From Acidimicrobiia bacterium (GTDB taxonomy: Bacteria; Actinomycetota; Acidimicrobiia; Spongiisociales; ZC4RG35): a stretch of 64,000 bases of DNA. The translations under genes and the position numbers were made by a program. The notes below the pieces were generated by a model. It was not told where the DNA came from. It ran no database searches and saw only the letters and a program-made list of their open reading frames with translations. The stretch is from the NCBI GenBank assembly GCA_965215185.1, contig OZ244034.1:256001-320000 (forward strand). Direction: 5' to 3'. Below, piece by piece: positions 3,285 to 28,979 of this stretch (position 1 is its first letter; every line of letters starts with the position of its first letter).

Positions 3285-3375
3285 GATCGCGTCGGAGTTG
3301 GTGGTTCAGCTAGTGCAGCCTTGGCCTTCGCCGTCACGGTCTCGAAATGATTAAACTACTGAAACCTCCCAGTAG

Positions 3376-4323
3376 ATGCAGAAACTTCACATCATTCTCT
3401 CGTGCACCGCCCGCAAGCGTGGGTCAGAGCCTGGGTACCCGCGGTTGCGTAGTGTGGGCCGGGCACCCGTATCGGACCGCGTCGAACAGTGGGCAGCCCT
3501 TGTCTCAGCGGCTTCCCGTTGGTACGTCGCGGCCGACTTGTACGCTGGGGAGTACTGGCAGACTGGAATGGAACTTGCATCTCGCGCCGCGTTGGCAGGG
3601 CAGATCAGTGTCTCCGTTGCTTCGGCTGGTCTCGGTCTCGTTGGCGTCCACGACGAAGTGCCCATATACGGAGCAACCTTCGCTGCTCGCCATCCCGACT
3701 CTGTGCTCGAAACCTTGAGTTCGGCAGCACCCAGCCAGGTGCGGCGTCAATGGTGGGACGAGTTGACGGGCGCCGAGGTCTTGGGTGGACACGGTCCCCA
3801 GCGTCTTGTTGAACTTGAGGAGCATGGATCAGGCACGGGCGTGATCGTATGCCTCGGACGAAGCTACCTCGATGCGGTGGCCACCGACTTGATAGCCTTC
3901 GTAGAGCGTCTCGCTGATCCCGAGCGGGTGATGGTCTTCGCTTCCGGTACGCCCCTGGCCGGGCTTGAGGAGTGCTGGGTGGCGGTCTCCGGAAGCCTGA
4001 GGCTCACCCTCGGTGGTTCGCTGTCCTCGACCAACGTCCGCGCGGCTATGGCCGTACTCGCAGAACTTGGCGCCTCGCCTCCCAATGTTGACAAGGCTCG
4101 TAGTATCGTGGCCACACTGAAGGCGACGGCGGGCGAACTTCCTTCCTTTGATCGGCGGCGGCAGAGCGACGAGGTCATTTTGGACTGGATTCTCGATCAC
4201 TTGGCGGAGGCGCCGAACCCGACCAAGACGGCGGCGCTTCGGTGCTTCCGGGACGGGGGCAATGCCTGCGAGCAGGCCCGGTTCGGCCGGCTCTTCGACG
4301 ATGCTTGGGAGAAGGCAACGTGA
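3376..4323 (+). CDS. YaaA/DUF328/DUF6884-like protein, probable DpdC counterpart
   Basis: HIILSCTARK, AADLYAG and VASAGLGLV...PIYGATF pattern of the YaaA-like fold; first gene of the Dpd operon, GTGA-coupled to the next gene. Confidence 0.6.
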   Translation: MQKLHIILSCTARKRGSEPGYPRLRSVGRAPVSDRVEQWAALVSAASRWYVAADLYAGEYWQTGMELASRAALAGQISVSVASAGLGLVGVHDEVPIYGATFAARHPDSVLETLSSAAPSQVRRQWWDELTGAEVLGGHGPQRLVELEEHGSGTGVIVCLGRSYLDAVATDLIAFVERLADPERVMVFASGTPLAGLEECWVAVSGSLRLTLGGSLSSTNVRAAMAVLAELGASPPNVDKARSIVATLKATAGELPSFDRRRQSDEVILDWILDHLAEAPNPTKTAALRCFRDGGNACEQARFGRLFDDAWEKAT

Positions 4324-5161
4324 AGGTCCTATGTCGTCGGGCACTCGTATCGAGCAGGCGAAGGCCGGACCTATGCACCTCTTTACGCTGCGCGCTGATG
4401 AGGTGTGTCAGGTAGCGGAGATCGTAAGGTTTCAACCGGAGCAATGGCGACGAGTTGGTCGACTATCAGCGCGCAGAGGTTAGAGACCACGTCCAGAACA
4501 TCCTCGAGTACTTGGACCGTGATGACGTGCTATTTCCCAATGCGCTGGTCCTCGGGATGAACGGTACGGTTCCGTTCCGTCGAAGCAGGGGTCCGGCCAA
4601 CGACGATGGCCTCACCAAGGTCGGCATGCTGGAGATCCCGATCGCTGAGCCGGCTACGTTTAAGCCCGCCTGGATAGTCGACGGACAGCAGAGGGCTCGC
4701 CGCTACGCGGACTCATCCGCCGCGCCTCGACCCACGAGGGTGGCGAGCAGTGATTACCGGCACGAGCATCGTTGAGATGCTGTGGGAGAGCCTTAACTCG
4801 CCATCGGGTTGTCTCTTCCCCTATCGGAGAACCTGGCCACCGGCGAAACGGATTTCGAGCCCATCTGGGAGATCCTCGTCGGATACTGGAGTGCTGATCG
4901 CGACGGGTTCCCTGAAGCATGGGGGAGAACTTCCCAGGAGAGCCACCTGATGCGCGGCGTCGGCATCCGCGCGCTGGTACGCTGGTGGACGAGGTGATGG
5001 GCTTACTAAGCGCTACCGAGACGAGCGTACGCGACCATGCGCCGCAGGCGATGGAGCGGATCGCTCCCCATTGCTGGAAAGACCTCGAGAACACAACCCG
5101 GACCCAGCGCCTGCTAGCCAACTACTTGATCCGAGTCTATTTCAATGTCGGGCAGGGGTGA
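4320..5161 (+). pseudogene. DGQHR (DndB/DpdB-like) protein paralog, multiply frameshifted and internally deleted
   Basis: Fragments DYQRAEVRDHV..FPNALVL..PAWIVDGQQR, then SGCLFPYR, EAWG..SHLMRGVGIRAL and TQRLLANYLIR are colinear with the intact 6417..7559 protein. The stop overlaps the dpdA ATG. Confidence 0.85.
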
Positions 5162-6408
5162 TGCAGTTCTACTTTCCCGACAGCCAAGACCAGGTGGACC
5201 CGAGTTTCGACTTCATCACAGAGCAGCGATCAATCCATCGCGTCCGCCAGAGAGACGATCGCTACGCTCATGAAGTCATCGACCCGCTACCCTACGATGG
5301 GCTGCTGATCTCCAAGCCTATCGTGGACGGCCTTCCCGGGGCGACGGCCAAGTACACGGGGGCCCAACGCAACCGGCTCCACCGGGAAGGCGCCAAGCGA
5401 TTCTTCCGGCTCGATCAGAGAGACGCCAATCTCAAGATCATGGGCGATTGTGGCGCGTTCACCTACGTGCGCGAGCACGAACCCGTGTACACCGTCGAGG
5501 AGGTCCTGGATTTCTACGAAGAGTGCGGCTTGGACCTTGGAATCGCGACGGATCATCTGATCTTCGGCTACGACTCTGAGTTGGATACGAAGAGCGCCGC
5601 AGACGTACCGGAGGACTGGAGGTTCCGTCAGGACCTCACCATTGAACTCGCAGCAGAGTTCCTGCAGTTGCACCGGGCACGCAGGTGCCGGTTCGAACCC
5701 ATAGCAGTGGCGCACGGTTGGAGCCCGTTATCCTACGCGAAGGCAGTGACGCAACTACAGGACATTGGGTACAGCCGGATTGCTCTTGGGGGGATGGTAC
5801 CGCTTAAGACCCCCGACATCCTCGATGCGCTCAAGGAGGTCTCGGTAGCGCTTGATCCAGCGGCGCAACTGCACCTTCTTGGTGTCACGCGCACTGCGCA
5901 CGTACAAGACTTTGCAGGGTTCGGTGTGACAAGCTTCGACAGCACATCCCCCTACCGTCAAGCCTTCAAGGACGAGACGGACAACTACCACACGCTGGAT
6001 GGCAGTTTCGTTGCCCTTCGCATCCCTCAAGTCGACGGCAACACCAGAATGCGCAGGCAGGTGGCCGCTGGCCTAGTCGATCAGAGGTCGGCTCGGCGGC
6101 TCGAACGCGATTGTCTCAGCCGGCTGCGAAGCTACGACAAAGGGGGCGCGGACGTGGAGAGTGTCCTCGACGCGATACATGGGTACGCGGAACTGCTCGG
6201 GACAAAAAAGGATCGGAGCATCGACTACCATCGAACGCTCGAGGCGAAGCCGTGGAGGCAATGCAGTTGCACGGTCTGCAGGGAGATCGGGGTCGAGGTG
6301 ATCATCTTTCGAGGGTCCGACCGGAATCGGCGACGAGGATTTCACAATCTCGCCGTGTTCTCCGAGAGACTGCGCCGGGAACTCGACCGGGCCGACGGGA
6401 GGAGTTAG
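5161..6408 (+). CDS. dpdA: DNA-guanine transglycosylase DpdA (TGT paralog)
   Basis: Start MQFYFPDSQDQVDP; TGT motifs MGDCGAF, DHLI, IALGGMVP, HLLGV and SFDSTS; Zn site CSCTVC...H. Confidence 0.92.
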   Translation: MQFYFPDSQDQVDPSFDFITEQRSIHRVRQRDDRYAHEVIDPLPYDGLLISKPIVDGLPGATAKYTGAQRNRLHREGAKRFFRLDQRDANLKIMGDCGAFTYVREHEPVYTVEEVLDFYEECGLDLGIATDHLIFGYDSELDTKSAADVPEDWRFRQDLTIELAAEFLQLHRARRCRFEPIAVAHGWSPLSYAKAVTQLQDIGYSRIALGGMVPLKTPDILDALKEVSVALDPAAQLHLLGVTRTAHVQDFAGFGVTSFDSTSPYRQAFKDETDNYHTLDGSFVALRIPQVDGNTRMRRQVAAGLVDQRSARRLERDCLSRLRSYDKGGADVESVLDAIHGYAELLGTKKDRSIDYHRTLEAKPWRQCSCTVCREIGVEVIIFRGSDRNRRRGFHNLAVFSERLRRELDRADGRS

Positions 6409-6416
6409 TTGGCACC

Positions 6417-7559
6417 ATGGGCGGCGCTTCAAAATACGAACTGCGGTTTCCTGCACTTGAGGTGCGACAGGGCCGTGAACGACGAATCTACACGTTTGCC
6501 GTTGACGGCAAGGAATTGCCGAAGTTCACGACGGTCAGCCGGGTACGGCGCGATGAGCGGCGGATCGCGGGCTACCAGAGACCCGAGGTTCTGGCCCATG
6601 TCGCTGCGATCCGTTCATACATCGAGACAACTTCGCCGATAATCCCCAACGCGATCGTCGTCGCCTTCGATACTCGAGTTCGCTTCGTGCCGACAGAGCC
6701 TGTCACCTCAGCCGATGGCTATGTAGCCACAGGCACGCTGATTGTTCCCGTCGATGAAGACCTACCGGACGAGGACAAGCCTGGTTGGATCGTTGACGGT
6801 CAGCAAAGGTGCGCCGCCGTCCGAGAAGCGGAGGTGGAATCCTTTCCCCTGTGCGTCACAGCGTTCATCACTGCCAGCGAGGGTGAGCAGCGCGCTCAGT
6901 TCATACTCGTGAATTCAACGAAACCACTTCCCAAGGGCCTCATCTATGAGCTACTGCCATCCACAGAGGGCCTACTCCCCCCTGCGTTGATGCGCAAGCG
7001 CTTCCCCTCGTTTGTGGTCGAGCGGCTGAATTTCGACGAGGACTCACCGTTCTACCAGTTGATTCAGACACCAACCATCCCGGACGGAGTGGTTAAGGGG
7101 ACCTCGATCCTCCGCATGGTCGAAAACAGTTTGACCAACGGCTGTCTCTACTACTTCCGCGACCCCAATACGGGAAGGGGCGATATAGAGGAGATGCTGT
7201 TGATCTTGAAGCCGTTCTGGCAAGCGGTTCGGAAGGTCTTCGACGAAGCATGGGGTCTTCCGCCGCGCCGGTCGCGCCTAATGCATGGTGTTGGGATTGC
7301 GAGTTTGGGCTACCTGATGGATGCTATCACCGACGATTACATGACGCGAGGCCTGCTGCCCGGCGAGGCCGACTATGCAGCGGAACTCGAACTTCTGCGT
7401 GAAGAGTGCGCGTGGACTGGCGGCTACTGGTATTTCGGTGATGACTCGCTGCGGCGGTGGAACGAACTCCAGAACACCCACAAGGACATCAAGTTGCTGA
7501 CGGACCACTTGCTGCGCAAGTACCGGAGGCTCTTGAGAATTAAGCCCCGAGGTGCATGA
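6417..7559 (+). CDS. dpdB: DGQHR domain protein DpdB
   Basis: GYQRPEV, IPNAIVV, WIVDGQQR and QFILVNSTKPLP; follows dpdA with a GGAGGAG RBS. Confidence 0.9.
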   Translation: MGGASKYELRFPALEVRQGRERRIYTFAVDGKELPKFTTVSRVRRDERRIAGYQRPEVLAHVAAIRSYIETTSPIIPNAIVVAFDTRVRFVPTEPVTSADGYVATGTLIVPVDEDLPDEDKPGWIVDGQQRCAAVREAEVESFPLCVTAFITASEGEQRAQFILVNSTKPLPKGLIYELLPSTEGLLPPALMRKRFPSFVVERLNFDEDSPFYQLIQTPTIPDGVVKGTSILRMVENSLTNGCLYYFRDPNTGRGDIEEMLLILKPFWQAVRKVFDEAWGLPPRRSRLMHGVGIASLGYLMDAITDDYMTRGLLPGEADYAAELELLREECAWTGGYWYFGDDSLRRWNELQNTHKDIKLLTDHLLRKYRRLLRIKPRGA

Positions 7560-7760
7560 GCAAGGCAGGACAAGGTGGTACAGGACGAAGCATTCGGGAT
7601 ACTTTCAGGCCTTCAGCGGTGATCGAGATGAAGCAACCTAACCTATCGGAACATATCAGAACCCAAAGCCACTCCTACACCCTGTGTGACTTATCCATAA
7701 TCTTGCTAAGCGTGGCGGAGTAGTCCGCTGGGGGTGCGGCGCGGACGACGAGTTGGCGGA

Positions 7761-9248
7761 ATGGCACCGCGGGTGGTTGGTCAATCTGATCTGGGCCGGT
7801 TCGTTGTCGGTAAGCCAGAACTCGGCATCGGGCGCCTCGTAGGCCTTGATAGCACAACAACTCGTATCCGTTACTTCCGAGGACCGGCTACGGATCCCTA
7901 CGTCGAGCGAGAATCAGATATGTTGAAGGTCGCTATCGCTGAGATCCGCGCTCACTCGCGGGTGTACTTCCACGATGGACGTCGCTGGAGAATTGGGCGG
8001 GTCGAGGCTGAGCATCCCGACGGTGATGGGCGGTATCTCGTGGCCCTGCCAAACAACGAAGGTGGGATCCTGTCGAGCGACCAGTTCGACATCCGATGGG
8101 CACTTAGGATTGAGGACCCCTACGAGATTCTCGCCTCGCTCGGTGGCGACAGCCCTCTTGTCTACGAGCCAAGAGCCGATTTGATCGCGTCGTGGTATAC
8201 GCTGCGGGCTGCTGCTGCTGGGGTCAGAGGACTTCTCCTGGGGTCGGTCGAACTCCATGACCACCAACTCACGGTCGTGCGCAGCGTCTCAAACGACCGC
8301 GAACGTCGATACCTCCTGGCCGATGAAGTCGGCCTAGGCAAGACCGTCGAGGCGGGAGCACTCGTCTGGCAGTCGTTGAGCGACTATCCCACCGGCGAGG
8401 TGCTCGTTCTGGCTCCCGACCACCTTCGTCAACAGTGGGCCGAGGAGTTGATCAACAAGTTCCATGTCGATGGGTTCCGCGCAGCCTCGATCCAAATCCG
8501 TGCCCATGAAGAACCGGAGACGTGGCCAGACGTGCCAGTTCAGGTACTCGTAGTCGACGAGGCTCATCACCTCACTCGCTCTGGACCGTTTCCACCAGAG
8601 GTGCTGGAGCGCGTGGCCGGGTTGGCGCACGGCGCGAGCGAAGTTTTCCTCCTTTCGGCGACACCGGTCCGGTCGAACGAGGCGGCGTTCCTTGATCTTT
8701 TGCACTTGCTGGACCCGAAGAACTATCAGCCACAGGATCTCGAAGCGTTCACTCGCCGGGTCGAGATGCGGGACGAACTCGCGCTCATTCACCACTCGCT
8801 CACATGCGACTTGGATGAGTTCGACTTCTCGCTCTACGCTGACCAGTTGCGAACACATTTCTCGGACGATGAGACACTCGTATTGCTCGTCGATCAGGCT
8901 CTTGACTGCACCGACGACCAGCGTCCTGACCGGATTGTGAAAGTCAGAGAGCATCTCTCGGAGACCTACCGGCTACACCACCGACTTCTACGAACGCGCC
9001 GGACCCCACAGATCAGTGCAACCTTCGGCGTTAGAGGCCGTCGCCGTGGTCGGCCTTTCACAGTGGAGATCAGCGACAACAGCGACTACGTTCGCTTCGA
9101 CCTAATCGAGAGCTTCCGGCAACATATCGCCGAACTTGTCGACTCCGAGGAGGTCGAAATTGACCAAGCTACAGAGGCGCTTCGGCTACTCGGCCAAGCT
9201 TGCGGTTCGCTGCCCCATGCAATCCTGGAGTTTCACTGCCGCAGGTGA
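7761..9248 (+). CDS. dpdE: DpdE SNF2/RapA-like helicase, N-terminal part (frameshift-split)
   Basis: YLLADEVGLGKT, VVDEAHH and LLSATP motifs; ends at an apparent +1 frameshift near 9231-9234. Confidence 0.85.
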   Translation: MAPRVVGQSDLGRFVVGKPELGIGRLVGLDSTTTRIRYFRGPATDPYVERESDMLKVAIAEIRAHSRVYFHDGRRWRIGRVEAEHPDGDGRYLVALPNNEGGILSSDQFDIRWALRIEDPYEILASLGGDSPLVYEPRADLIASWYTLRAAAAGVRGLLLGSVELHDHQLTVVRSVSNDRERRYLLADEVGLGKTVEAGALVWQSLSDYPTGEVLVLAPDHLRQQWAEELINKFHVDGFRAASIQIRAHEEPETWPDVPVQVLVVDEAHHLTRSGPFPPEVLERVAGLAHGASEVFLLSATPVRSNEAAFLDLLHLLDPKNYQPQDLEAFTRRVEMRDELALIHHSLTCDLDEFDFSLYADQLRTHFSDDETLVLLVDQALDCTDDQRPDRIVKVREHLSETYRLHHRLLRTRRTPQISATFGVRGRRRGRPFTVEISDNSDYVRFDLIESFRQHIAELVDSEEVEIDQATEALRLLGQACGSLPHAILEFHCRR

Positions 9249-10866
9249 GTCCGACGGGGCGCTCGGGCTTTTATGCCGATGGCTCATGTCTACTGGTAAC
9301 GCCTGGCGACGGGATCTAGGCGCCGTCGCGCCAGTCGTTCTTGATGAGGTCGTCCGTCAGATCGGTGCGATGGCCATATCTAAGGACTGTGGGAAGGTCC
9401 TTGTAGCGAGCGCCTACACAACAGTGGCGGAGGTCGTCACCGCGGCCGTAGCGGACTCCTTCAGGGGGCACCACGTGGCCAAGCACGTGAGTGCTCAATC
9501 GCCGGAGGAGAACGCAGCAAGCGTCGACCGATGGCGGTCTGACATTAGCTGTCGGCTTCTAGTATGCGATGCGAGTGCTGAGGAAGGCATCAACCTCCAG
9601 ACAGCAGATGTGATTGTCCATTTGGACCTCCCATGGGACGTGTTTCGTCTCGAACAGAGGCTCGGCCGTGCCGACAGATTCGTCCGCGGTAAGCCACAGC
9701 CCGTGGAGTCGATGGTGTTCCTTTACGGCGAGCAGATATACGCGCAGGGGTGGTTCCTTTTCGCGGCTGACTCCTGCGGGGTGTTCGACCGGTCGGTCTC
9801 ATCGCTGCAATATGTTCTTGCCGACCTGGAGTCCAAAGTCGTCGGTAAGGCGATCACTGGTGGAGCCGGGGTGTTTGACTCTGAGATCGAGTTGCGACGG
9901 GAGCACCTCCAAGTCGAGGCAGAGCGAATAGCTGCTCACGATTCTCTGGACTCGGTAAGCGGACTCCACCGTGGCCTCAACGAACGCCTTCTTCAGGAGG
10001 ACGATGCCCTGCGACTCGGCGCCGCGCTTAAAACTTGGTTGACCAGTGTCGGGGCGAAGGTGCGGAGTCCTGCTAGAGGCAGCCTTCAGATAGCCAGTCG
10101 ACCGCGTCCTCAAGTTCCCTTTACCCTTGAACTCGCGATGGCGCCGTGGGTCGGTAGCGAACTGGCGCTGTCGCGCCAGGCGTCGGTGGAGCGAAGCGTG
10201 CCGCTCGTGAGGCCCGGTCACGGGTTGGTGGATGAAATCGTGCGTCACCTTCGCGATGATGATCGCGGCGTTGCGTTTGCCTTCATGCGGCCGGAGCGTG
10301 GTTGCTGGCCGCCTATGCCAGTGTTTCGGACAGACTTTCTAGTGCGAGCGTCGACGACGCATGAACTGGATCGCACAGCGCGCGAGCAGGGGGTTACTTC
10401 ATGGCTGCAGATTCAGCGTGAGTCGCTGCTACCCCCTGTGCTCGAGACTGTGTACATGTCCGATCTGGGTGTGGAGATTGAGAGTCCGGCAGCGACGCGT
10501 CCCTACAAGCAGGCGATGGGGGATCGGAACCTAGTCTCACGACCGGGATTATTCGCTGAGGTAACGGCGCACCTCGATTGGGAGGCCGTGTGCGGCCAGG
10601 GTCTCACGAGTGCTAGGAAAATCCTCGACCGCCGTGACTCCGTCGGACCACGAGCGGCCCGCTCGGCGCAGGCCCTTAAGTCCTCGATCGACAGCCATCT
10701 TGTAGCACTTCGCGCTCGGGCTGCGACCGACCTGGAGCCGGTTGACAAACGGATGCAGGCCTTCGAAGCCCTTGCGCTAGCAGTTCCCAACCGCCTGGAG
10801 GTGGTGGTCGACGTGATCGGCAGCGGAGTGATCATTCTGGCGAACCCTGGCCTGATCGGCGAGTGA
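9136..10866 (+). CDS. dpdE: DpdE helicase, C-terminal part (HELICc lobe; true coding begins near 9235)
   Basis: EEGINLQ, HLDLPW and LEQRLGRADR motifs V/VI; continues the upstream ORF in another frame. Confidence 0.82.
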   Translation: MSTPRRSKLTKLQRRFGYSAKLAVRCPMQSWSFTAAGESDGALGLLCRWLMSTGNAWRRDLGAVAPVVLDEVVRQIGAMAISKDCGKVLVASAYTTVAEVVTAAVADSFRGHHVAKHVSAQSPEENAASVDRWRSDISCRLLVCDASAEEGINLQTADVIVHLDLPWDVFRLEQRLGRADRFVRGKPQPVESMVFLYGEQIYAQGWFLFAADSCGVFDRSVSSLQYVLADLESKVVGKAITGGAGVFDSEIELRREHLQVEAERIAAHDSLDSVSGLHRGLNERLLQEDDALRLGAALKTWLTSVGAKVRSPARGSLQIASRPRPQVPFTLELAMAPWVGSELALSRQASVERSVPLVRPGHGLVDEIVRHLRDDDRGVAFAFMRPERGCWPPMPVFRTDFLVRASTTHELDRTAREQGVTSWLQIQRESLLPPVLETVYMSDLGVEIESPAATRPYKQAMGDRNLVSRPGLFAEVTAHLDWEAVCGQGLTSARKILDRRDSVGPRAARSAQALKSSIDSHLVALRARAATDLEPVDKRMQAFEALALAVPNRLEVVVDVIGSGVIILANPGLIGE

Positions 10867-10867
10867 C

Positions 10868-13444: not shown

Positions 13445-13455
13445 GAGACGGTGAT

Positions 13456-14355
13456 ATGGCCTTACTCAATCCGCCAGAATTGCGGGCGAGCATGATGAGC
13501 GTCATCATCCTCTACTTGGCCCAGTGTCGAGGTCAGCGTGATGGGCGGACCCGCATCGTCGACGCAATCTCGCCTCCGAGCCTCACGGAGTCGCCGCAGA
13601 GGCACCAACTTGACGCTAGCCGCAATCTGACGAGTGCTGTCGAAATCGGCATTGCGATTCGTGATGGCGACCGAGTACAACTTAGCCCGGAGAGCATCAA
13701 GGCAGCTAGGAAGGGAACCTCAGCGATGGCGGGGCTCATACGTCAGCGCATCCTGTCGGAGGATCTGAACACTGCCCCCTGGGGAAGCCAAGAAGGCGCG
13801 CGTGACCTCACCAACGCCCTCGGTTGGTTCCTCACCTTTGGTCCTACCAATGCACCCGCTCGAATGGAAGGTGATGCGCCGTCGGCGAAGGCCCTGCAAG
13901 AGGCCGACTTCGGCACGCGGTACGGCGACGACGATTCAAGCGGCTGGCCGATCTCCAACAGCACTCGCTGGGTCGCTTTTCAGCGCTGGGCATGCTCCCT
14001 CGGGTTTGCGTGGCGCTCTCCCTCCGGACGTCTAGTCCCGGATCCCGCTCCGGCCGTTCGCGACTCAATTCCTGCGATATTCGAGAGCGAAACGACGCTG
14101 GATGGCCGATCCTTCGTTCTAGCCCTTGGTGCACAACTGCCAGTTTTGGAGTGCGGAGCGTATCGACGGTTCATCGAGGAGAATTGGAGCCGTACGTCAG
14201 AATCCAGTGCGGCTCTCAGCACTGCTACGACGGATGCGTTGCGGCGGCTCGAGGCAAGTGGGCACTTGGCGTTCGAGGACCGGGCGGACGCTCCAAGGGA
14301 AGAACGGGCTGACGGATCGACCTTTTCGCACGTCTCAAGGGGGCGAGCGCGATGA
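13456..14355 (+). CDS. dpdG: DpdG
   Basis: MALLN start, NSTRW..FQRWACSLGF, PDPAPAVRD, LPVLE.G.YR and EDRADA; lies between dpdF and dpdH. Confidence 0.8.
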   Translation: MALLNPPELRASMMSVIILYLAQCRGQRDGRTRIVDAISPPSLTESPQRHQLDASRNLTSAVEIGIAIRDGDRVQLSPESIKAARKGTSAMAGLIRQRILSEDLNTAPWGSQEGARDLTNALGWFLTFGPTNAPARMEGDAPSAKALQEADFGTRYGDDDSSGWPISNSTRWVAFQRWACSLGFAWRSPSGRLVPDPAPAVRDSIPAIFESETTLDGRSFVLALGAQLPVLECGAYRRFIEENWSRTSESSAALSTATTDALRRLEASGHLAFEDRADAPREERADGSTFSHVSRGRAR

Positions 14356-17300: not shown

Positions 17301-17363
17301 GCGTCGGGTGTTCTAGCTGCGGTTGGTCGACTTGCAGAGGCAGTAGAGGAGCTCGAGAAGTGA
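14352..17363 (+). CDS. dpdH: DpdH P-loop ATPase
   Basis: FQAVHHP, Walker A GGSGTGKSHLVRW, Walker B ELVLFIED, CxxC...C cluster and LYPYN. Confidence 0.88.
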   Translation: MSVMRQYVCWTDRAVRATTPRDAASLEPGHFQAVHHPLKLRQRPLGTLTGGRWVEETEIVRVLEGPLRPDGYLLVPIVGGSGTGKSHLVRWVWNRTKDRDNWESRYLAKNRTSIRRAIAIVIEGLEGPAINDAREALQKAPVQSESEPVLAERLLDELALITAEESAMEIDVTDRRAAQMAAKLRRELPDILRDPVVRRRLTGDGAVIPRLVGLAKRGRCDGDGLDDDAIRVVDDDLPLAFAEIGEASKGAQKLLTQLGVIPSLRSAALGMINEALPSAVKRVFLSGQVDLIEVFREVRRELFVSGKELVLFIEDLTVLHGVEREFLDAIIEPARSPEGDLCALRVLFAVTEGHFAGLDTVRTRCDDGYRLDAAYGPNGVGHEEAMSFLGRYLNACRQDPAEVENLWANRQGDAWMPNACDACDHQVHCHDTFGRSEEGYGLYPYNPAAVDRFVDSLSSERFDPREVVRELVNRFLIVAATDLQRGDFPSDELVGPFDERSEALAPLVESELKSKRPADFAQVVNSMRYWSEFSTVVGDTTLAAFGLDVLGTLQVSPTPRPRAKGKSTSSGASGLSRGGPVAPREATLASRLRAPWARIFNELNTWAGNQRDLGASATNNLKKLIHKSILQNLDFSALPINLGADFDQQKRFDQGKHLHIAGSVTGQRRGDPIVAIEQDADTAAALQGLILLAELPDADDYPRANNYRRQAARYLEEWTLSVTARLEQSPEPAATQAINGLLLCAVVAGACEKASDPHDYLAALFGAASSAVGPHRSQKWQAVVEAADATYRRLRPGVEAHFGEARGTGGARAIRADQILTVIQDFTESGRLESTDPAIDRFMRSVAPAVEGEWETLEHLATGAAPLVDPNRSWSDQTKRVLELVEAAHRSGRLLDHDAARYLRAQASSLDENAHRLLLRAAELVRLNSPLLERLRVIASSLPDTVMTTSRFVTRAKQAMAGIAKDLDERRAGESEDETLEDVASGVLAAVGRLAEAVEELEK

Positions 17364-18097
17364 CACTCTTCGAAACCGCTACCGAACTCCAACTCCGACT
17401 TGAATCTGCGACCGCAGCGGATACGGGAGATCAGTTGCTGTCGCGCGGACGAACTGTGCGAACCGACATCGCGTCGGCGGCGGAACACTTTGAGGCCGTT
17501 CAGTCCTACCGAATCACGATTGGTCGGACGGATAGGCCGCCGCTGGCTGCGAAAGAGATCCGCCAAGCCATCGGTCGCTTCCGAGGAACTCTCTCCAACA
17601 GCGGACCCAAGGCAGTTCAGCAGCGGTCGGCAGTCACGCTCCTGAAAGTCCTGGATACACAGATCAAGCGTGTGGATCGCTGGGTCAAATCCACGTGGCA
17701 AGAGAACTTTGCCGCTTCTCAGGAACTGCTGGAGCGTGCGGACTCGGGGGACCTGCACGGGTCGCCGGTAAACAGGATTAGGGCGCTAAACCGTGCCAGG
17801 AGGGTTAAGGTCCTTCGGAACACAGATCCGGTCAGGGAACGAGCGGCTTTGGAAGAACTCCTCAAGGTAAAAGGTCTGAAGGCCTGTCTCGAAAAAGCCA
17901 ACGAGCTAATCGACGACCTTCGCGATGCGATCGCGGCGATCGATAGAGAACAGGCTGCAATGACGCCACAGGTACGGGCGGTTCTTCAGCGCGCAGCATC
18001 TGGTGATGGTCTACCCCTTGGGGAGGTGACGCCCGAACTCTTGGTCGCGCTCCAGTCAGGTGGCGTGCTGGATGACCTCGTAGTGCGTCGGTTATGA
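17360..18097 (+). CDS. dpdI: helical protein in the dpdI position
   Basis: Coupled by overlapping start/stop codons between dpdH and dpdJ; about 245 aa and helical. Assigned by synteny only. Confidence 0.6.
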   Translation: MTLFETATELQLRLESATAADTGDQLLSRGRTVRTDIASAAEHFEAVQSYRITIGRTDRPPLAAKEIRQAIGRFRGTLSNSGPKAVQQRSAVTLLKVLDTQIKRVDRWVKSTWQENFAASQELLERADSGDLHGSPVNRIRALNRARRVKVLRNTDPVRERAALEELLKVKGLKACLEKANELIDDLRDAIAAIDREQAAMTPQVRAVLQRAASGDGLPLGEVTPELLVALQSGGVLDDLVVRRL

Positions 18098-21000
18098 CTG
18101 ATCCAGGTCTCGTTGACGTACTCAACGAACTGGAGGCGCGCGAACTGCCCCTCCTCACCTGGGGTGTGACGAGTGGCGCATACGACGAGGACGAGATCCT
18201 CGGCTTGCTGGAATCGGCAAGGCCCGAGAAGGATCCCGAGGATCTCCTGGAACGCCTTCTCGCAACTGGATTCGTCTTCGAACGTGGTCTCACCGGGAAT
18301 CGATTTCGGACGCGCATGGCGGAGACAGTTCGCCTTGCGCGGCACTTGAGGCAGTGGTTCCACGGCCCCCGGAGCGACTGGCGAACAGCCAAGACGCTCG
18401 TCTCCGACATGCGCTTTCTTGCCCGACCACGTGTTGTTCCTGTCCGAGAAGTCAATGAGCATGAGTTGACGAGCCGTCTCAGCGCCGCTCTGAACGAGCG
18501 GTGGACGACGAGCCATGAGGCAACTCTGAAAGCAGTCCTCGGTGGGCGATTGGTGTCCGAGTTTCAGGCGAAATCAGCTGAGAGACTCCTGAGTTCGGTT
18601 GGCAACCGTGGCGGGACGTGCGTTACGGCCGGCACCGGAGCGGGCAAGACGCTGGCCTTCTACCTTCCCGCGCTGACTCATGCGCTCAGCGTGCCTGGGC
18701 CTCGGGGGATTCCCCGCATCGTGGCCATATACCCGCGTGTCGAGCTACTTCGTGACCAACTTCGCACCATCCTGAAGTTGGTCACGGACTTGGAGGCCCG
18801 TGATGCAGGACGCCTGCGAGTGGGTGTCCTCTACGGAGCGACCCCGCACCATCGGGCGGATGCGCAGCGGGACGTGCGCAAAGGGTGGCGCTCAACGGCG
18901 GATGGACTCACATCACCGATAGTCGATTCTTGCCTGAGGGAAGGGTGCTCCGGCGATCTCATTTGGCCGACCGGCGACGCGGAGGGCCGCCTTCTTCGGT
19001 GCGTCAGATGCGGGTCCGAATTGGAGTCGCTCGTGTTCTCTCGCCGGACGCTGACCTCCCAACCCCCAGAGATACTCTTCACGACAACAGAGATGGTGAA
19101 CCGGCTGCTCGGAATACCCCGCATGCGGCGATTGCTCGTCGGGGACTCGAGCAGTTCCCCAGACTTCGTTCTGCTCGATGAGATACACAGCTACTCCGGA
19201 ACCCACGGCGCGCAGGTAGCTCATCTGATTCGCCGATGGCGCGGTGAGATGGTGTCCCCGAGCCATGTGGTCGGGCTGTCCGCGACGCTTGCCGACCCCA
19301 AGGGGTTCTTCTCCCAACTGATAGGAGCAGGCACCGGGAACGTCGCGGTGGTCGCTCCGAACGACGCAGAGATGCGCGAGTCTGGTCGGGAGTACTTCAT
19401 GGCACTCCGTGGAGACCCCGCCTCGCAGACTTCCCTTCTCTCGACAACTATCCAAACGGCGATGCTGATGCGTCGCATGCTTGATCGCGAGCCCGGTATA
19501 CCGAGCGGCGGGACGTTCGGGACCCGTCTCTTTGCATTCACGGACAAACTCGACGTGGTCAACCGGCTCCACTCCCAACTACAAGATGCCGAAGGCTGGC
19601 AGCCAGGGGGAGTGGACCGTAAGCGAGAGGGAAGCCTGGCAGTCCTTCGGGCCTCCGGTGCCGACAACGGTCCCCGAGACGACGTCGGTCAACTCTGGGA
19701 CGCCGCCGAGGAGTTGGGCACGCTGACCCGCCGAGTAGTTGTTGACCGGACAACATCGCAGGACGCTGGCATCGGCAGTTCCAGTGACGTGGTTGTCGCC
19801 ACCGCCTCCCTGGAAGTGGGATTCGACGATCCAAACGTCGGCGCAGTGCTCCAGCACAAGGCTCCGCGCGACGCGGCGCAGTTCCTTCAGCGTCGCGGTC
19901 GAGCAGGTCGCAATCCAGCGATGCGGCCCTGGACAGCCGTGGTCCTGTCTGACTACGGGCGAGACCGCCTCGCATTCCAGGCCTACGAGGCGCTGTTCGA
20001 CCCCAAGGTTCAACCCGCCCACTTGCCGATCAGGAATCGGGTCATCCTCAAGATGCAGGCCACGTGGTGGCTGGTCGACTACCTCACGCGAGCATCGGGT
20101 GGAACACCGCTGCGATCCGTGCTCGCGTCGCGGTGGCTCCGCAACCCTGACCGCCAGGTCCGTGCAGCACGCGATGCGTTGGTCGCTGCCAGGAACCTGC
20201 TAACCGACGAAGGGCTTGGCAAACTCGAGAGCGGGCTCAAGTGGTCGCTCCGAATCAGCGAGGACGACGCGCGATCGGTTCTCTTCGACCATCCGCGTGC
20301 CATTGCGACGACAGTCCTGCCGACGATCATCCGGCGGCTCGAAGGCGTAGTTGGCCAACACAAATTGCCTAGCCACTTTCGATGGAGCGATCCTCTCCTT
20401 GACTTCGTTCCGAGTTCGCTCTTTGCCCCACTGCAGACCCCTGAGGTGCGGGTCGAACTTCCCCTCGCTGGGCAATTCCAACCCGAGCCTCACACTGAGC
20501 CGATCGCACAGTCGATGCGCGAGTTTGCGCCCGGAAGGGTCAGCTACAGGTTCGCGCTCCGAGGTAAACGCGAGCGCATGTGGGTCAACCCGCCAGCGTC
20601 AACGGAACCAAACCTCGACCTCGAAACCTTCTGCTCGGACTATCTGCAGTTGACGCGTCCACCTGGGTTACAGGAGCCCGTGGTCCAACCCCGTTCGATT
20701 CAGTTGTCGCGTCCCACTACGCGAGTGCCCGACTCGTCGTACGGCAGATGGAACTGGGAGGTGTTCTTCCGAGTCAACGGCGTGCCGGCCGAGTTGGACG
20801 TTCCGTCCGGCAGTCCATGGACGAAGTGGGTTCGATCAGTCGCTGTGATGACGCACCACGTCCGAGCACCTCTAACCGTCTGGCGGATAGCACGGACTGC
20901 GGAGGTCGAACGACAAGTCTCGTCCGAGCCGTCAACAACGCAACACCGCGTGCGCCTCGCAGGAAGCAACGCCGCGATCGGATTCGCGATGGAGGTCGAC

Positions 21001-22449
21001 GGACTCCGGATCGACGTGTCGCTACCGGAGCAAGTGCCTTCCCAAACCGGGACCAAACTCGATCGCGCTCTGCGCACCACCTACTTTGAGCATCTTGTCC
21101 TCACCGACTCAACGCTAGCACGACTTCCGTCCTCATTCCTTCGCGAATGGATGGCGCAACTCTCTCTGTGCGCTGTGGTGATGGCCTCTGTTGACGCCGG
21201 ATCAGACCTCGCTGAACTCTCCGACGCAGGTCTGTCAGCGGGGATGGTCCAGGCCGCTCGAGCAGTATTCGGCGCCGAAGGGCCGTCAGATGACCCAACT
21301 GTGCCAATCCACGACCCTGGCCTGGTCACTGACGTGGAGGGCGCTCTCCACGACGGGGAGATCGTGACCGCACTCCAACGATGCCTGGCGAATCTGCGCG
21401 GGCCACTGCCAGCAGAGTCACTCACATGGGTGCACGAGCGCTACGCATCTACGGTTGCGGCTGGGTTCATCGGAGCCATGCAGGCAATGTGCCCCGACCT
21501 CGATGTCGACGATCTGCGAGCGGACTTCGAACTCCGGTCGTCGGATGACGACGAGCCGTTCGCTCGGATCACGATTTCAGAGGATCAACCCGGAGGGACC
21601 GGCGTAGTGGAGACAGCGGTGGAGCGGATAGTCCAGGACCCACGGGCGTTCTGGTCTGTAGTGACGAGCGTCCTCGGCCCATGCGATGGCGAACGCATCG
21701 ACGAGGCGCTTCGACGTTTCTTAGGAGACCGCGCCGATGGACGCCTCGCCCGCGAGGTTGACCAAGTTCGAGCGTCATCGACTCTCGCCGCCACGACGAT
21801 GGCATGGGCGTCGCTTCGGGAGAGGATGTTCCGAAGCGGGATGGATGCGGATCCGACAGTGATCAGCGCACTGGCGACCCGACTTCTCCGGCCAGGCAGT
21901 GACGCGACCGTCGAGCAACTGTGTCGGGACCTGCTCGGCCGCTGGGACGCGCTGGAGGACAATCTTGGACTTGAAGTGGATCTCCGCGTGTTTGCCTACA
22001 TCGCGGCTCGACATGACGAGACTCGTCGGTCTCTGGCCGCCATCACGTCTTGGACCAACCAGGATTCAGAGTGGCTCGTCGGGCAGATCGTGGGGTTGCT
22101 CTGGTCCCGCGGGAGCAAACTCCGTGCAACGAGCCTCGAGAATTACAACCCGTACTGTCAGGCGCCGAACACCGAGCGTCTGCTCGTCGAGCCCATCACA
22201 CGAGCACCAATCACCACCGTGCAGTACGGCACCGCCGGCTGGAGGACCAACCTCGATGACCAGTTGAGCCTCGACGGCATCGCTCAGATCGCATGCTCAG
22301 ACGAGGCGGAAGCAGTGCACGCCCTGCGTCAATTAATGACAGTGCCGACTGTAGTTGGAGTTTTGGAGTTTCATCCCCGGGTGGTTGGCGTGGAGCGGCC
22401 GAACGCCGAAATCACACTGACTGTGGACATCCGAGAGGCACAACAGTGA
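18094..22449 (+). CDS. dpdJ: DpdJ DEAD/DEAH-box (Lhr-like) helicase
   Basis: AGTGAGKTLAFY, IYPRVELL.DQ, Zn motif, LLDEIH, GLSATL, ATASLEVGFDD and QRRGRAGR. Confidence 0.92.
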   Translation: MTDPGLVDVLNELEARELPLLTWGVTSGAYDEDEILGLLESARPEKDPEDLLERLLATGFVFERGLTGNRFRTRMAETVRLARHLRQWFHGPRSDWRTAKTLVSDMRFLARPRVVPVREVNEHELTSRLSAALNERWTTSHEATLKAVLGGRLVSEFQAKSAERLLSSVGNRGGTCVTAGTGAGKTLAFYLPALTHALSVPGPRGIPRIVAIYPRVELLRDQLRTILKLVTDLEARDAGRLRVGVLYGATPHHRADAQRDVRKGWRSTADGLTSPIVDSCLREGCSGDLIWPTGDAEGRLLRCVRCGSELESLVFSRRTLTSQPPEILFTTTEMVNRLLGIPRMRRLLVGDSSSSPDFVLLDEIHSYSGTHGAQVAHLIRRWRGEMVSPSHVVGLSATLADPKGFFSQLIGAGTGNVAVVAPNDAEMRESGREYFMALRGDPASQTSLLSTTIQTAMLMRRMLDREPGIPSGGTFGTRLFAFTDKLDVVNRLHSQLQDAEGWQPGGVDRKREGSLAVLRASGADNGPRDDVGQLWDAAEELGTLTRRVVVDRTTSQDAGIGSSSDVVVATASLEVGFDDPNVGAVLQHKAPRDAAQFLQRRGRAGRNPAMRPWTAVVLSDYGRDRLAFQAYEALFDPKVQPAHLPIRNRVILKMQATWWLVDYLTRASGGTPLRSVLASRWLRNPDRQVRAARDALVAARNLLTDEGLGKLESGLKWSLRISEDDARSVLFDHPRAIATTVLPTIIRRLEGVVGQHKLPSHFRWSDPLLDFVPSSLFAPLQTPEVRVELPLAGQFQPEPHTEPIAQSMREFAPGRVSYRFALRGKRERMWVNPPASTEPNLDLETFCSDYLQLTRPPGLQEPVVQPRSIQLSRPTTRVPDSSYGRWNWEVFFRVNGVPAELDVPSGSPWTKWVRSVAVMTHHVRAPLTVWRIARTAEVERQVSSEPSTTQHRVRLAGSNAAIGFAMEVDGLRIDVSLPEQVPSQTGTKLDRALRTTYFEHLVLTDSTLARLPSSFLREWMAQLSLCAVVMASVDAGSDLAELSDAGLSAGMVQAARAVFGAEGPSDDPTVPIHDPGLVTDVEGALHDGEIVTALQRCLANLRGPLPAESLTWVHERYASTVAAGFIGAMQAMCPDLDVDDLRADFELRSSDDDEPFARITISEDQPGGTGVVETAVERIVQDPRAFWSVVTSVLGPCDGERIDEALRRFLGDRADGRLAREVDQVRASSTLAATTMAWASLRERMFRSGMDADPTVISALATRLLRPGSDATVEQLCRDLLGRWDALEDNLGLEVDLRVFAYIAARHDETRRSLAAITSWTNQDSEWLVGQIVGLLWSRGSKLRATSLENYNPYCQAPNTERLLVEPITRAPITTVQYGTAGWRTNLDDQLSLDGIAQIACSDEAEAVHALRQLMTVPTVVGVLEFHPRVVGVERPNAEITLTVDIREAQQ

Positions 22450-22973
22450 CAACTCGAAGCCTCCGTACGAAGGCCTTCGCTTCTCGCGTGGAGTTGGCGG
22501 ATGCACTGCAGTGTTTGTTCGTCTCCGAGGTTCTTGTGCCCAGCACGCCTCTTTGGATCGTTACGCCGTGGATCTCTGATGTTCCGATCGTCGATAACCG
22601 AGCGGGCCGATTCAAAGGGTTGGTCCCGGCGCTCCCAGAACGCTGGATTCGACTTGGCGAGATTATCGAACAGCAGTTGGTTCGGGGTGGATCCCTAGTG
22701 GTCGCCTGTCGCCCCGACGACCACAACCGATCCTTCACCGACCAGATCCAGCGGAGAGGTAGGGAGATCGGTCGTGAACAGCGCGTGCGCGTCAGATTGT
22801 CTCCCGAACTGCACGAGAAGGGGATCCTGTCTGCAACCGCCTTTATCAGCGGGTCGATGAACATGACCTACAACGGGCTGCGAAAACTTGAGGAAGTAAT
22901 TCATCTCACGGATGAGAGCGACGCGGTGGCACGCGCGCGGGCTGCTTATCAAGACAGGTGGGGCGAGCCATGA
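22446..22973 (+). CDS. dpdK: DpdK phospholipase D-like nuclease
   Basis: LWIVTPWISDVP and LHEKG....GSMNMTYNG (HxK PLD motif); GTGA overlap with dpdJ. Confidence 0.9.
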   Translation: MTTRSLRTKAFASRVELADALQCLFVSEVLVPSTPLWIVTPWISDVPIVDNRAGRFKGLVPALPERWIRLGEIIEQQLVRGGSLVVACRPDDHNRSFTDQIQRRGREIGREQRVRVRLSPELHEKGILSATAFISGSMNMTYNGLRKLEEVIHLTDESDAVARARAAYQDRWGEP

Positions 22974-25153
22974 GGGATATCGACCCTCGCGTGAGCACGC
23001 TCTACGACGCGCCCAACGAGATAGATATCAGTTCCCTTGGCGGGGAGGCTGCAGATCTAATCCAGGTTCTCCTGGGCCGGTTCGTGGAGGGCAAGCGGAC
23101 ATTGCTTCCGGCCAGAGTCAACAATTCGACGAGGTGGTACGGGATCGCCGGGTCTGATCGTGACGGCCGGCTTCTGACAGAGGAGATGGCCTCGTGGCTC
23201 GGTTCTCCCCTGTGCGACCGGACAACTGTCGTCGAGAAGCCCGAGGATGTGGTTGATGAAAGGGCAGCACTGCTGACCAGCAACGGGATCCTCTTGCGGA
23301 CGCGTGTTACGGCCGGCTGGCAGGGCGAAGCGCGCGAGAACGTTCGCTCATTGGTCGATGTGTGGACGTTCACCCCGGAGCGCGCTCATGACGCGCCGCG
23401 ACCCGTTGGCAGAGTCCTACGGCACTTCTACGAAGGGATCGCGGCGAGAGATCGAGCCTCGGCGACGGATGCACTCGAGGAGATCCGCGCAGGTGGCTTG
23501 CTGTCGGCGACGAACATCAGGTTCCTCCGTGTCGAACTGCTTGCTCGCCTCGGGACGCCAGAAGAACTCCGGAGCGACCCCCTCCTCGCGGACATCGCGC
23601 TGGTGAGGCGACCCCCGGCCGTCAGCGATCATCTCGCTCGTGCCGCCGATGCCCTCTATGTCCCTCCGAGCGCGGAGAAATCAGGGCGCGACAACTGGCG
23701 GTCAATGGCGTCGGACATTGAGCAGGGGTGGCCTGGGCTAGTAGCGCACCCGAGTCAGATTCGGTCTGTACATGGCGCGAGGTGCCTCGCTCTGACCGAA
23801 CTCCTCGCTGAGCTTCCAAGGAGCGGGGTGATCGACGCCCTTCGATCGAACTGGAATGAGGACGTCTTGGTGGCAGGCGTTGTGGCTGCCCTCGAATCCG
23901 AGTCGAAGCGAGTCCCCGGGGAGGCTGGAGTTCCAGACGGTATCTCCGCGGTCCGGGGTCACTACCAGCGTGGGGAGTTCGAACTGGCACTCGATGCCGC
24001 CGAGCGGGTGAAGCCAGATCGAGGCGTGGCGACCGCGGTCATGCATGCCGCGCTCAATCTGGGCGATGCCGTCGCCGCGGCGCGTGCGGTCGCCCTTGTC
24101 GATCGACTGCCGGAACTCGACCGCGACGCGCTGCTCTCGCAAGCTGTTGGCGGCGTGTTCTACACACAGTTGGTCGATCGCAATCAGGGCACTCAGGTTC
24201 CCGACGGCTGGATCGACTGGCTGCGTGGCGAATGGCCCGACCGTCCAGACCTTCTCAACGACTGGTCTTCAACTTGGGGGAGTGACGATCCCGTAGCGGA
24301 TGAGGCGGCCGACGTGCTCGCTGGCGAACTGCTCGATGCCCTGAACGACAATCGTCGGGGCCGCGTGCGGAATGGTCTTCCAGCCCTGGTGCGGTGGCTC
24401 GTGACAGAGGACGGTCTTCTGCCATCGTCCATGCCGCTGGCCGTCACGATCTTGGACATCATGCTTGGCAGCGATCCCGGTCGAGCGGAGAGGAGCGCCG
24501 CTCTCGACCTGCTCGGCGAGGTCCTTCTCACGGGTTGCTCACTTGACGAGTATCGGACCGCCGTAGCCGCTCTGAGCGACCAACTGGTCCGCCTTGGCCC
24601 ACGCGAGGTCGACTGGTTGACAGGGATGTTGGACCTTCAGTTGCTCAGTACCGTCCCAGATACCCGCTTGCGCGACGAGTTGTTTGCCAATGCACTCGGC
24701 GTTGTGGTCTCCTGGTTCGGGCGGATCGAAGATACCGAAGCGATCGTGCTGCGGAAACTGTTCATGGACGTAGGCATCGACTTGGACCCGCCGCTGACAG
24801 ATCACCCTGACCCCCAAACCTCTCGAAGGATCAAGACTTTCAAGCGCGTTGGGATCTATTCGTTGGCAGAGTCTGCAGCCAACAAGGCCGCACACTGGAT
24901 CCGTGATGAGTGGCCCAGCGTTGAAGTGCGGCTATCGCACGCTCACTCGAACAACTCTGAGTTGGATGGTCTCGTGCGCAGTTCGGACGTCGTCCTTATG
25001 CAAACGAGCCATGCGAAGCACGCAGCCACCATCGCGATCGAGCGCTCGATCGAGACAACGCGTCTGGTGCGTGTGAACGGACGTGGTGCCACGTCCCTCT
25101 TTCGCGGTCTGCTGGAATGGGCTACGATCGGTCGCCGCCGCGCATGGTCATGA
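22970..25153 (+). CDS. dpdD: DpdD (C-terminal DUF2325-like domain)
   Basis: LSATNIRFL, GWIDWL and C-terminal VGIYSL.E...SDVVL...HAKHAAT...GRGATSL; last gene of the cluster. Confidence 0.85.
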   Translation: MRDIDPRVSTLYDAPNEIDISSLGGEAADLIQVLLGRFVEGKRTLLPARVNNSTRWYGIAGSDRDGRLLTEEMASWLGSPLCDRTTVVEKPEDVVDERAALLTSNGILLRTRVTAGWQGEARENVRSLVDVWTFTPERAHDAPRPVGRVLRHFYEGIAARDRASATDALEEIRAGGLLSATNIRFLRVELLARLGTPEELRSDPLLADIALVRRPPAVSDHLARAADALYVPPSAEKSGRDNWRSMASDIEQGWPGLVAHPSQIRSVHGARCLALTELLAELPRSGVIDALRSNWNEDVLVAGVVAALESESKRVPGEAGVPDGISAVRGHYQRGEFELALDAAERVKPDRGVATAVMHAALNLGDAVAAARAVALVDRLPELDRDALLSQAVGGVFYTQLVDRNQGTQVPDGWIDWLRGEWPDRPDLLNDWSSTWGSDDPVADEAADVLAGELLDALNDNRRGRVRNGLPALVRWLVTEDGLLPSSMPLAVTILDIMLGSDPGRAERSAALDLLGEVLLTGCSLDEYRTAVAALSDQLVRLGPREVDWLTGMLDLQLLSTVPDTRLRDELFANALGVVVSWFGRIEDTEAIVLRKLFMDVGIDLDPPLTDHPDPQTSRRIKTFKRVGIYSLAESAANKAAHWIRDEWPSVEVRLSHAHSNNSELDGLVRSSDVVLMQTSHAKHAATIAIERSIETTRLVRVNGRGATSLFRGLLEWATIGRRRAWS

Positions 25154-27055: not shown

Positions 27056-27174
27056 ATCTCTGTTTCCAATTGTTTCCTCTTAGGCTATCCGGGCGATTAT
27101 CAGTTGCTATCAGTATAGGGGTGGGTTCCTATGGTCGTCAGTGGAACACCATGAGAGGGCTAATCTGTGGCATG

Positions 27175-27220
27175 ACCTGGGATGATAGGGATCTCATGGG
27201 TTTTCCCTGGCATCCCAGGT
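27175..27220. repeat. inverted repeat upstream of the integrase
   Basis: ACCTGGGATG (27175-27184) and CATCCCAGGT (27211-27220) are perfect 10-bp arms, with inner AGGGA/TCCCT pairing. Confidence 0.6.
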
Positions 27221-28735: not shown

Positions 28736-28979
28736 AGCCCAGCCTCGAACTGCTCGGAGGAGCGTTCTTCGATCTTGGTGGTTAGTTCCCGGCGTCGGGT
28801 TTGGGGTTCGTTCCCGATGCCGAAAACGATCGGTATGACGGATGCTCTGTGAAAGGTGTGGGCTTCAAAGCGACCTAGGATGGCTGCGGAGAAACACGGG
28901 GCCGGCAGCGGCGTCGCCTTCCGCCCACAAAGGGTAGCAATCGACACCCCACCCGTCTGGTGGGTGGATGCCTTTACCG

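Follow-up and report, generated by a model that had tools for sequence, protein, structure and literature searches.

The stretch of DNA analysed here (the window, 64,000 nucleotides (nt) long, positions 256001-320000 of a single-contig, 3.12-Mb Acidimicrobiia genome that is 95.4% complete) carries at 3376-25153 a Dpd 7-deazaguanine restriction-modification island, the modifying base of which is most likely 7-cyano-7-deazaguanine (preQ0) imported from outside, as judged from the gene content of the host. There is an even chance, in our estimate, that a Dpd system wholly dependent on imported 7-deazaguanine has spread through at least 12 species-level genomes of a preQ0-less Acidimicrobiia lineage without YhhQ and QueT. 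The region itself is very probably an integrase-borne Dpd island with the full canonical gene set: as a preliminary description of the window had reported, its genes are tightly packed and co-oriented, with 12 reading frames that are spaced by no more than about 200 nt or overlap slightly (Table 1). As a Dpd island it adds little, its gene set, gene order, duplicated dpdB and unlinked preQ0 genes being described or common; its interest is that of a full restriction-modification system under purifying selection in genomes with no known route to its modifying base.

Source of the modifying base

The island holds neither que nor fol genes, as the preliminary description had also observed. According to the available part of a published survey, about 73% of dpd islands contain no preQ0 genes, about 27% have them linked, and YhhQ occurs in about 9% (PMC11888242). 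Salvage, together with further transporter families yet to be found, is expected by the Dpd literature in the sections available (PMC5699537; PMC11888242). The preliminary description had placed the source of the base in either the host queuosine pathway or salvage, and had proposed a genome search for queC, queD, queE, yhhQ and queT, none of which was found. The best QueC match in the host genome scored 23.7 bits against a cut-off of 150.3, searches returned no QueD/PTPS, QueF, YhhQ or QueT (FolE was not searched), and the QueC, QueE and QueD proteins of the nearest outgroup island (L018, QueC-bearing) retrieved nothing from the host genome as tblastn queries at an E value of 0.01. In that outgroup island, the stretch between dpdB and dpdE (13213-17090) encodes an HNH endonuclease, a third DndB-like gene, queC, the radical S-adenosylmethionine gene queE and queD. 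With queC, queD, queE and queF missing, the host pathway is excluded as a source and salvage survives.

The host genome does have tgt and queA, in the context ruvCAB-queA-tgt-secDF. Because these two genes persist without genes for the synthesis of preQ0 or 7-aminomethyl-7-deazaguanine (preQ1), the lineage must already import a queuosine precursor for its tRNA, and this combination, a retained queA-tgt pair in a closed host genome lacking queC, queD, queE, queF, YhhQ and QueT, together with the distribution of QueC across Dpd-bearing genomes given below, makes imported preQ0 the most likely base for the DNA. Among 61 genomes of the same order, the window genome included, QueA was found in 59, QueC over its cut-off in one and DpdA in two (57, one and two of 59 when G039 and G050, both flagged as unpublished, are left out). 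In about 15 relatives among G017-G058 the main queA is accompanied by a more divergent QueA-like match of 190-264 bits, and the window genome has one queA.

Across Dpd-bearing genomes, QueC was absent from all 12 with this island type and present in all 23 others tested. The 12 comprise the window genome (G000), the same-genus genome G006, G061-G065, and G068, G070, G090, G092 and G093, the last five being those that lack QueC among 28 tested genomes with a DpdC-type locus (QueC in 23). Several of the 12 are single large contigs or closed chromosomes. Tgt was found in 11 of them, QueD in one, YhhQ in one and QueT in none of the seven tested. Full-length, sub-threshold QueC-like matches of about 75 bits (cut-off 150.3) occur at G012:C1:2569569-2570123 and G065:C1:1837241-1837789; these may be QueC-like proteins of another system. 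In the DpdA phylogeny that the preliminary description had called for (a quick tree with only Shimodaira-Hasegawa-like approximate likelihood ratio support, SH-aLRT), nine islands form a clade with a support of 100 and QueC is absent in all nine, while the other three QueC-less islands (L021, L025 and L063) group separately, with the QueC-bearing L024 as their sister. In the available parts of the Dpd literature we found no statement that Dpd hosts of an entire lineage lack preQ0 synthesis throughout their genomes, and we do not claim that the observation is unpublished.

The modification genes

The preliminary description called the lead gene YaaA-like, which captured its fold correctly and missed its identity: by its sequence it is dpdC, the normal third modification gene. 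Ten PADLOC DpdC models matched it, the best (PDLC02817; E 1.8e-63, 212.7 bits) aligning residues 1-313 with model positions 1-296 of 299, and BLASTP against the gene, itself unnamed, that immediately precedes dpdA on the Enterobacter cloacae plasmid NZ_CP086409 gave an E value of 3e-28 and 27% identity over 257 residues. Its homologues directly precede dpdA or a second dpdB paralogue (dpdB') in 56 of the 61 loci surveyed below. Pfam and NCBIfam yielded no match even at E 10, PF03883 and PF21818 included, and it was the PADLOC models and locus context that settled the identity. PF03883 (YaaA) matched nothing in the whole genome at E 1, and distant DpdC homologues matched DUF6884 at or below threshold and YaaA faintly.

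In the available parts of the literature, the DpdC of the characterised system is given as a DUF328 protein (PMC5699537) and as a DUF6884 protein (PMC11888242), and the Pfam curators list CxxxK and LSAxxG as the motifs of DUF6884, a family distantly related to YaaA (PMC11701544). Residues C10, R13 and K14 (CxxxK) and S83, A84, G85, G87 and L88 (SAGxG) are invariant in 18 aligned DpdC homologues, and the window protein carries an extra helical segment at its C terminus, in which an ACEQxRF motif is invariant. Its AlphaFold2 model (mean predicted local distance difference test score, pLDDT, 89.6) found its best PDB match in Escherichia coli YaaA, 5caj (Foldseek E 3e-3, probability 0.99), which was also the sole chain with Z >= 8 in VIA-align (Z 8.3, root mean square deviation 5.5 over 181 residues). 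The protein is YaaA-like in fold and not a member of the YaaA family, and by analogy with the characterised system its predicted role is the conversion of DNA-borne preQ0 into an amide, 7-amido-7-deazaguanine (ADG).

The window DpdA looks like a preQ0 enzyme. It matches the DpdA structure from Salmonella Montevideo (7UI4) with an E value of 1.8e-129 and keeps all ten residues named for that protein in the available part of PMC10164549 (D95, F99, D130, H181, G182, G206, G207, L236, D256 and F265; 7UI4 chain numbering is the native numbering plus 20), and the CxCxxC stretch and the GGMVPLKT loop are conserved as well. In an alignment of 58 DpdA sequences, QueC-less islands have the same pocket motifs as their QueC-bearing sisters L018, L019, L020 and L023. 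The suggestion in the preliminary description that the product may differ is not borne out: since the pocket residues match both the Salmonella enzyme and the sister islands carrying queC, queE and queD, nothing suggests another substrate or product. The H181 position is occupied by Q in many DpdA of other phyla (AQGW, IQGW) and by H in the window clade, the E. cloacae plasmid and S. Montevideo. The dpdB gene begins 9 nt past the end of dpdA, and its product covers NCBIfam profile positions 1-352 of 352 and scores 485 bits on the PADLOC DpdB model.

The DGQHR pseudogene that had been noted ahead of dpdA was confirmed as a degraded dpdB'. Its DGQHR fragment (4455-4775) covers only positions 45-127 of the NCBIfam DpdB profile (86.4 bits). 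L011 is the island whose DpdA is closest to that of the window (93%), and its B' is intact; aligned with this gene, the remnant falls into pieces corresponding to residues 4-32 in frame 2, 31-126 in frame 3 (80%) and 241-295 in frame 3 (78%), with 76-80% amino-acid identity, about 220 nt gone and changes of frame; on this alignment the fragment is orthologous to the L011 gene. Its broken state is not an assembly artefact, because an 11,936-nt contig from an independent assembly (X4), spanning 3300-11000 with 36 substitutions and one gap that lies elsewhere than in B', shows the same indel structure. B' is just 35-40% identical to the window DpdB, which marks it as an old paralogue.

To place this layout, one genome per species was scanned with a DpdC alignment and the window Dpd proteins were mapped by tblastn onto the 61 loci obtained. 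The order dpdC-dpdB'-dpdA-dpdB was found in 39 loci and, with both B genes in pieces, in one more (L050); 16 have dpdC-dpdA-dpdB, three end with their contig after dpdC-dpdB, and two (L033 and L065) have dpdC alone. Modification genes including dpdA and dpdB thus follow straight after dpdC in 56 of the 61 (39, 16 and the one split form), and the plasmid locus L071 is likewise C-A-B. According to the available part of the GATOR-GC study, dpdB is the dpd gene most often duplicated (n = 801; PMC11888242). Most loci carry a further DGQHR gene in the dpdC-dpdA interval, which is no mark of a variant, and the different architecture claimed for the modification module does not hold: the lead gene is DpdC, and the gene order is that of the E. 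cloacae plasmid cluster.

Some further arrangements were observed among these loci. Four close relatives (L011 8482-9282, L012 8806-9648, L014 8878-9657 and L017 8868-9647) show an additional, weak match to DGQHR/DpdB-like proteins, with 24-26% identity, 350-720 nt ahead of dpdC; it has no counterpart in the window. One actinomycete contig holds both L033 and L045, so that a dpdC homologue standing by itself and a complete C-B'-A-B set are separated by about 25 kb, and in L035 dpdC-like genes flank B'-A-B on both sides.

The restriction module

The assignment to a Dpd system is carried by NCBIfam equivalog models, which exceeded their curated cut-offs for DpdA, DpdB, DpdF, DpdG, DpdH, DpdJ, DpdK and DpdD. 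A search with Dpd profiles had been recommended in the preliminary description, and between them NCBIfam and PADLOC name the modification genes, DpdC included. The full dpdE-K/D module described there stands for dpdD, dpdF, dpdG, dpdH, dpdJ and dpdK; dpdE is present in two frames, and dpdI is assigned by its position only. The start of dpdK was inferred from the profile match (1-167 of 167), which begins at residue 55 of an open reading frame (ORF) opening at 22293. A literature search turned up no newer Dpd work on DpdD, DpdJ or DpdK.

The split of dpdE, also reported earlier, is real in the window sequence and probably not in the organism. The two frames (7734-9248, profile positions 1-485, 442 bits; 9136-10866, positions 541-1012, 271.2 bits) each fall under the NCBIfam DpdE cut-off of 500, whereas the dpdE of the same-genus genome G006 is a single ORF of 1030 aa, compared with which the window is longer by a single T in the run TTT at 9231-9233. 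This base is missing from contigs of all four other sequencing runs compared, from four studies: X9 (898 nt, no other difference), X5 (489 nt, one other difference), X8 (1999 nt, three) and X4 (11,936 nt, 36). Because the four runs agree with one another and with the open frame, the split is read as an error of assembly, and dpdE is probably whole, its split a homopolymer error; the extra T may also be a private mutation.

In S. Montevideo, according to the available part of PMC10164549, DpdA and the ATP-hydrolysing DpdB exchange guanine for preQ0, and DpdC makes ADG independently. If the window proteins behave likewise, DpdA would replace a guanine of the DNA by preQ0 while DpdB hydrolyses ATP, and DpdC, independently of both, would turn the preQ0 nitrile into the amide (dADG). 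The preQ0 itself would enter the cell from outside via a carrier other than YhhQ or QueT. DpdD-K, which comprise three helicases, a nuclease of the phospholipase D (PLD) type and proteins of unknown fold, would restrict DNA without the mark.

Table 1 Features of the Dpd island and its integrase-bearing flanks, with window coordinates.
Feature	Coordinates	Strand	Basis
Tyrosine integrase pseudogene, truncated and frameshifted, left flank	2659..3302	-	tblastn, queries the window's three intact integrases
dpdC, 315 aa, DUF6884/YaaA superfamily	3376..4323	+	PADLOC DpdC models
dpdB' pseudogene, remnant of second DGQHR paralogue	4349..5140 (about)	+	tblastn with intact B' of L011
dpdA, DNA-guanine transglycosylase	5161..6408	+	NCBIfam DpdA 570.6 bits (cut-off 200); PADLOC 577.5 bits
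dpdB, DGQHR/ParB-like ATPase partner of DpdA	6417..7559 (start codon approximate)	+	NCBIfam DpdB 475.1 bits (cut-off 300)
dpdE, SNF2-type helicase	7734..10866	+	Two frames in window; NCBIfam DpdE
dpdF, DEAD/RecQ-like helicase	10868..13444	+	NCBIfam DpdF 676.9 bits (cut-off 550); Pfam DEAD, Helicase_C
dpdG	13456..14355	+	NCBIfam DpdG 157.3 bits (cut-off 80)
dpdH	14352..17363	+	NCBIfam DpdH 571.1 bits (cut-off 450), profile positions 1-1008 of 1014
dpdI, by position only	17360..18097	+	Located between dpdH and dpdJ, of fitting size
dpdJ, large DEAD/DEAH helicase	18094..22449	+	NCBIfam DpdJ 1377.1 bits (cut-off 800), profile 1-1482 of 1482
dpdK, phospholipase D-like nuclease candidate	22455..22973	+	NCBIfam DpdK 179.3 bits (cut-off 100); Pfam PLDc_2
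dpdD	22958..25153	+	NCBIfam DpdD 333.4 bits (cut-off 300)
P4-type tyrosine integrase, intact, right end	25901..27055	-	Pfam Arm-DNA-bind_3, Phage_int_M, Phage_integrase
Further tyrosine integrases	28980-30125; 30647-31708	-	Integrases beyond right end

Alternative explanations

It is unlikely that the island is a decaying relic in which the want of preQ0 prevents modification, the dpdE frameshift disables restriction and the genes are heading to loss. The dpdB' pseudogene, the truncated integrase of the left flank, the frameshift in the window dpdE and the failure to find preQ0 genes in the genome (in searches for QueC, QueD and QueE) would all fit such decay. However, the extra dpdE base is missing from all four other runs, each of the other dpd genes is one ORF that covers its profile almost from end to end, the island is kept in all 12 QueC-less genomes, and loss of dpdB' is tolerated, as the gene is absent from the 16 C-A-B loci, the E. 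cloacae-like form among them. In addition, the ratio of nonsynonymous to synonymous substitution rates (dN/dS) was 0.085-0.329 in all 28 comparisons of seven genes (dpdC, dpdA, dpdB, the two dpdE halves, dpdF and dpdG) with L010, L011, L013 and L017, which fits purifying selection and argues that the island is not a relic. Less probable again is that the DpdA of this clade inserts another salvaged 7-deazaguanine, for example preQ1, so that the DNA product differs from dPreQ0 and dADG. Such a proposal could draw on the tRNA requirement, which is for preQ1 and not preQ0 given that queA-tgt is present without queF or queC, and on the failure to find a known preQ0 transporter in the host, but it is at odds with the pocket: D95, D130, H181, G182, G206, G207, D256 and the GGMVPLKT loop are as in the S. 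Montevideo DpdA, which its authors argue, in the available part of their account, must select preQ0 over preQ1 (PMC10164549), and no clade-specific change separates it from the sister islands that carry queC, queE and queD. Furthermore DpdC, which acts on the preQ0 nitrile, is kept with its invariant motifs and a dN/dS of 0.19-0.23.

The proposal closest to the preliminary description, a little-described Dpd variant in which a YaaA-like protein stands where DpdC would and DGQHR proteins number two, is scarcely credible. It gains from a lead gene unnamed by Pfam and NCBIfam and from the DGQHR fragment between that gene and dpdA, but ten PADLOC DpdC models match the lead gene, DpdC is by definition a DUF328/DUF6884 protein in the literature available, C-B'-A-B is the layout of 39 loci, and extra dpdB copies are the commonest duplication (PMC11888242, available part). 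Every feature flagged earlier as variant is either the norm for the Dpd family or an artefact. A match to an already characterised subtype with que genes elsewhere on the island, the outcome that the preliminary description had named as counting against it, was largely what was found, except that no que genes lie elsewhere on the island. Ordinary Dpd clusters can look like variants because models of the type used by the Prokaryotic Genome Annotation Pipeline (PGAP) and Pfam leave DpdC and DpdI unnamed, a caution for the use of automatic annotation.

For a complete canonical island fed by imported preQ0, several points must be set on the other side. A candidate importer was not found in the island, in the queA-tgt neighbourhood or through preQ1-I/II riboswitches: the island contains no transporter, none lies beside queA-tgt, where the neighbourhood consists of ruvCAB, secDF, relA and hisS only, and the preQ1-I (RF00522) and preQ1-II (RF01054) riboswitch models had no genome match at E 1 (preQ1-III was not searched). 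One of the 12 QueC-less genomes, G093, has QueD and YhhQ on another contig, completeness figures were available for only two of the 12, and a non-homologous preQ0 pathway may have escaped homology search. The roles of DpdA, DpdB and DpdC would be those of S. Montevideo by transfer at about 50% identity for DpdA and 27% for DpdC (against the E. cloacae proxy). The dpdI gene, supported by position only, scores 26.8 bits on the NCBIfam DpdI model (cut-off 150), has no PADLOC match, and shares a 25-residue C-terminal match only with the same-position gene of NZ_CP086409. For dpdE, the contigs without the extra T have low depth (2-3.8), and one of the four runs may be the source sample of the window itself.

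If dependence on imported preQ0 is true, self-protection in these bacteria would hinge on other organisms as suppliers of the base and on a transporter family that awaits description, and the QueC-less genomes could offer a comparative-genomics handle for finding that transporter. They would also provide a clean natural case for two open questions that the Dpd literature has posed, namely which transporters besides YhhQ carry preQ0 into cells and how a Dpd host avoids self-restriction when the base is scarce.

Flanks of the island

The integrase remnant at the left flank matches residues ~173-384 of the intact integrase Int1 at 86-92% identity in three frames (tblastn), and repeat families D1, D2 and D4 all include this stretch. 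At the right end, the three intact tandem integrases within 25901-31708 (- strand) are paralogous (61-86% mutual identity), and a 19-residue integrase N-terminal remnant lies further right at 41274-41330 (- strand), so that with its several integrase copies the locus looks like an integration site used repeatedly. No tRNA gene that could mark an attachment (att) site was found within the 64-kb window, and no clear att pair emerged from a direct-repeat search of the window, which returned integrase copies only. A 62-nt unit is present in two tandem copies (98% identical) at 28518-28641, about where a phosphodiesterase-like ORF (27747-28607) ends. Just left of the island, a 563-aa protein encoded at 767-2458 (- strand) matches the PADLOC 'dCTPase' model (dCTP deaminase anti-phage; E 4.1e-125) and Pfam dCMP_cyt_deam_1, which points to a second defence gene next to the Dpd genes.

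Comparison with known Dpd systems

The window shares all eleven gene families with the Dpd system of S. Montevideo (7UI4; PMC10164549), dpdI by position only, and the two systems agree in having a DGQHR-type DpdB and a DUF6884/YaaA-like DpdC. In contrast to the window genome, in which no preQ0 genes were found, the S. Montevideo host makes preQ0 and has duplicated preQ0 genes in its island, according to the available part of PMC5699537. The window further differs in having all its dpd genes on one strand and a dpdB' remnant, and its DpdC and DpdI are far diverged from those of S. Montevideo.

A closer match in gene order is the cluster on the E. cloacae plasmid pPOL9A (NZ_CP086409.1, annotated by PGAP), which reads hypothetical (= DpdC)-dpdA-dpdB and dpdE-F-G-H-hypothetical (= I)-J-K-D, the same order as in the window. 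It too has no que genes beside it, and its DpdC and DpdI are likewise unnamed. Identity to the window is 50% for DpdA and 27% for DpdC, and the plasmid restriction genes lie on the opposite strand, whereas those of the window lie on the same strand; co-oriented dpdE-dpdF after dpdB also occurs in many other loci, for example L042, L049, L054 and L069.

Clusters with a second DGQHR gene between dpdC and dpdA are found in Kineococcus (L053), Mycobacterium (L029), Myxococcus (L028) and Mesorhizobium (L069). Unlike in these, B' is broken in the window and gone in seven of the eight other members of its DpdA clade, and while all tested C-B'-A-B genomes outside the Acidimicrobiia clade have QueC, the window genome is without it. 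Beyond Dpd systems, the best structural counterpart of the DpdC model is E. coli YaaA (DUF328, 5caj), and the CxxxK and LSAxxG-like motifs of DUF6884 are invariant.

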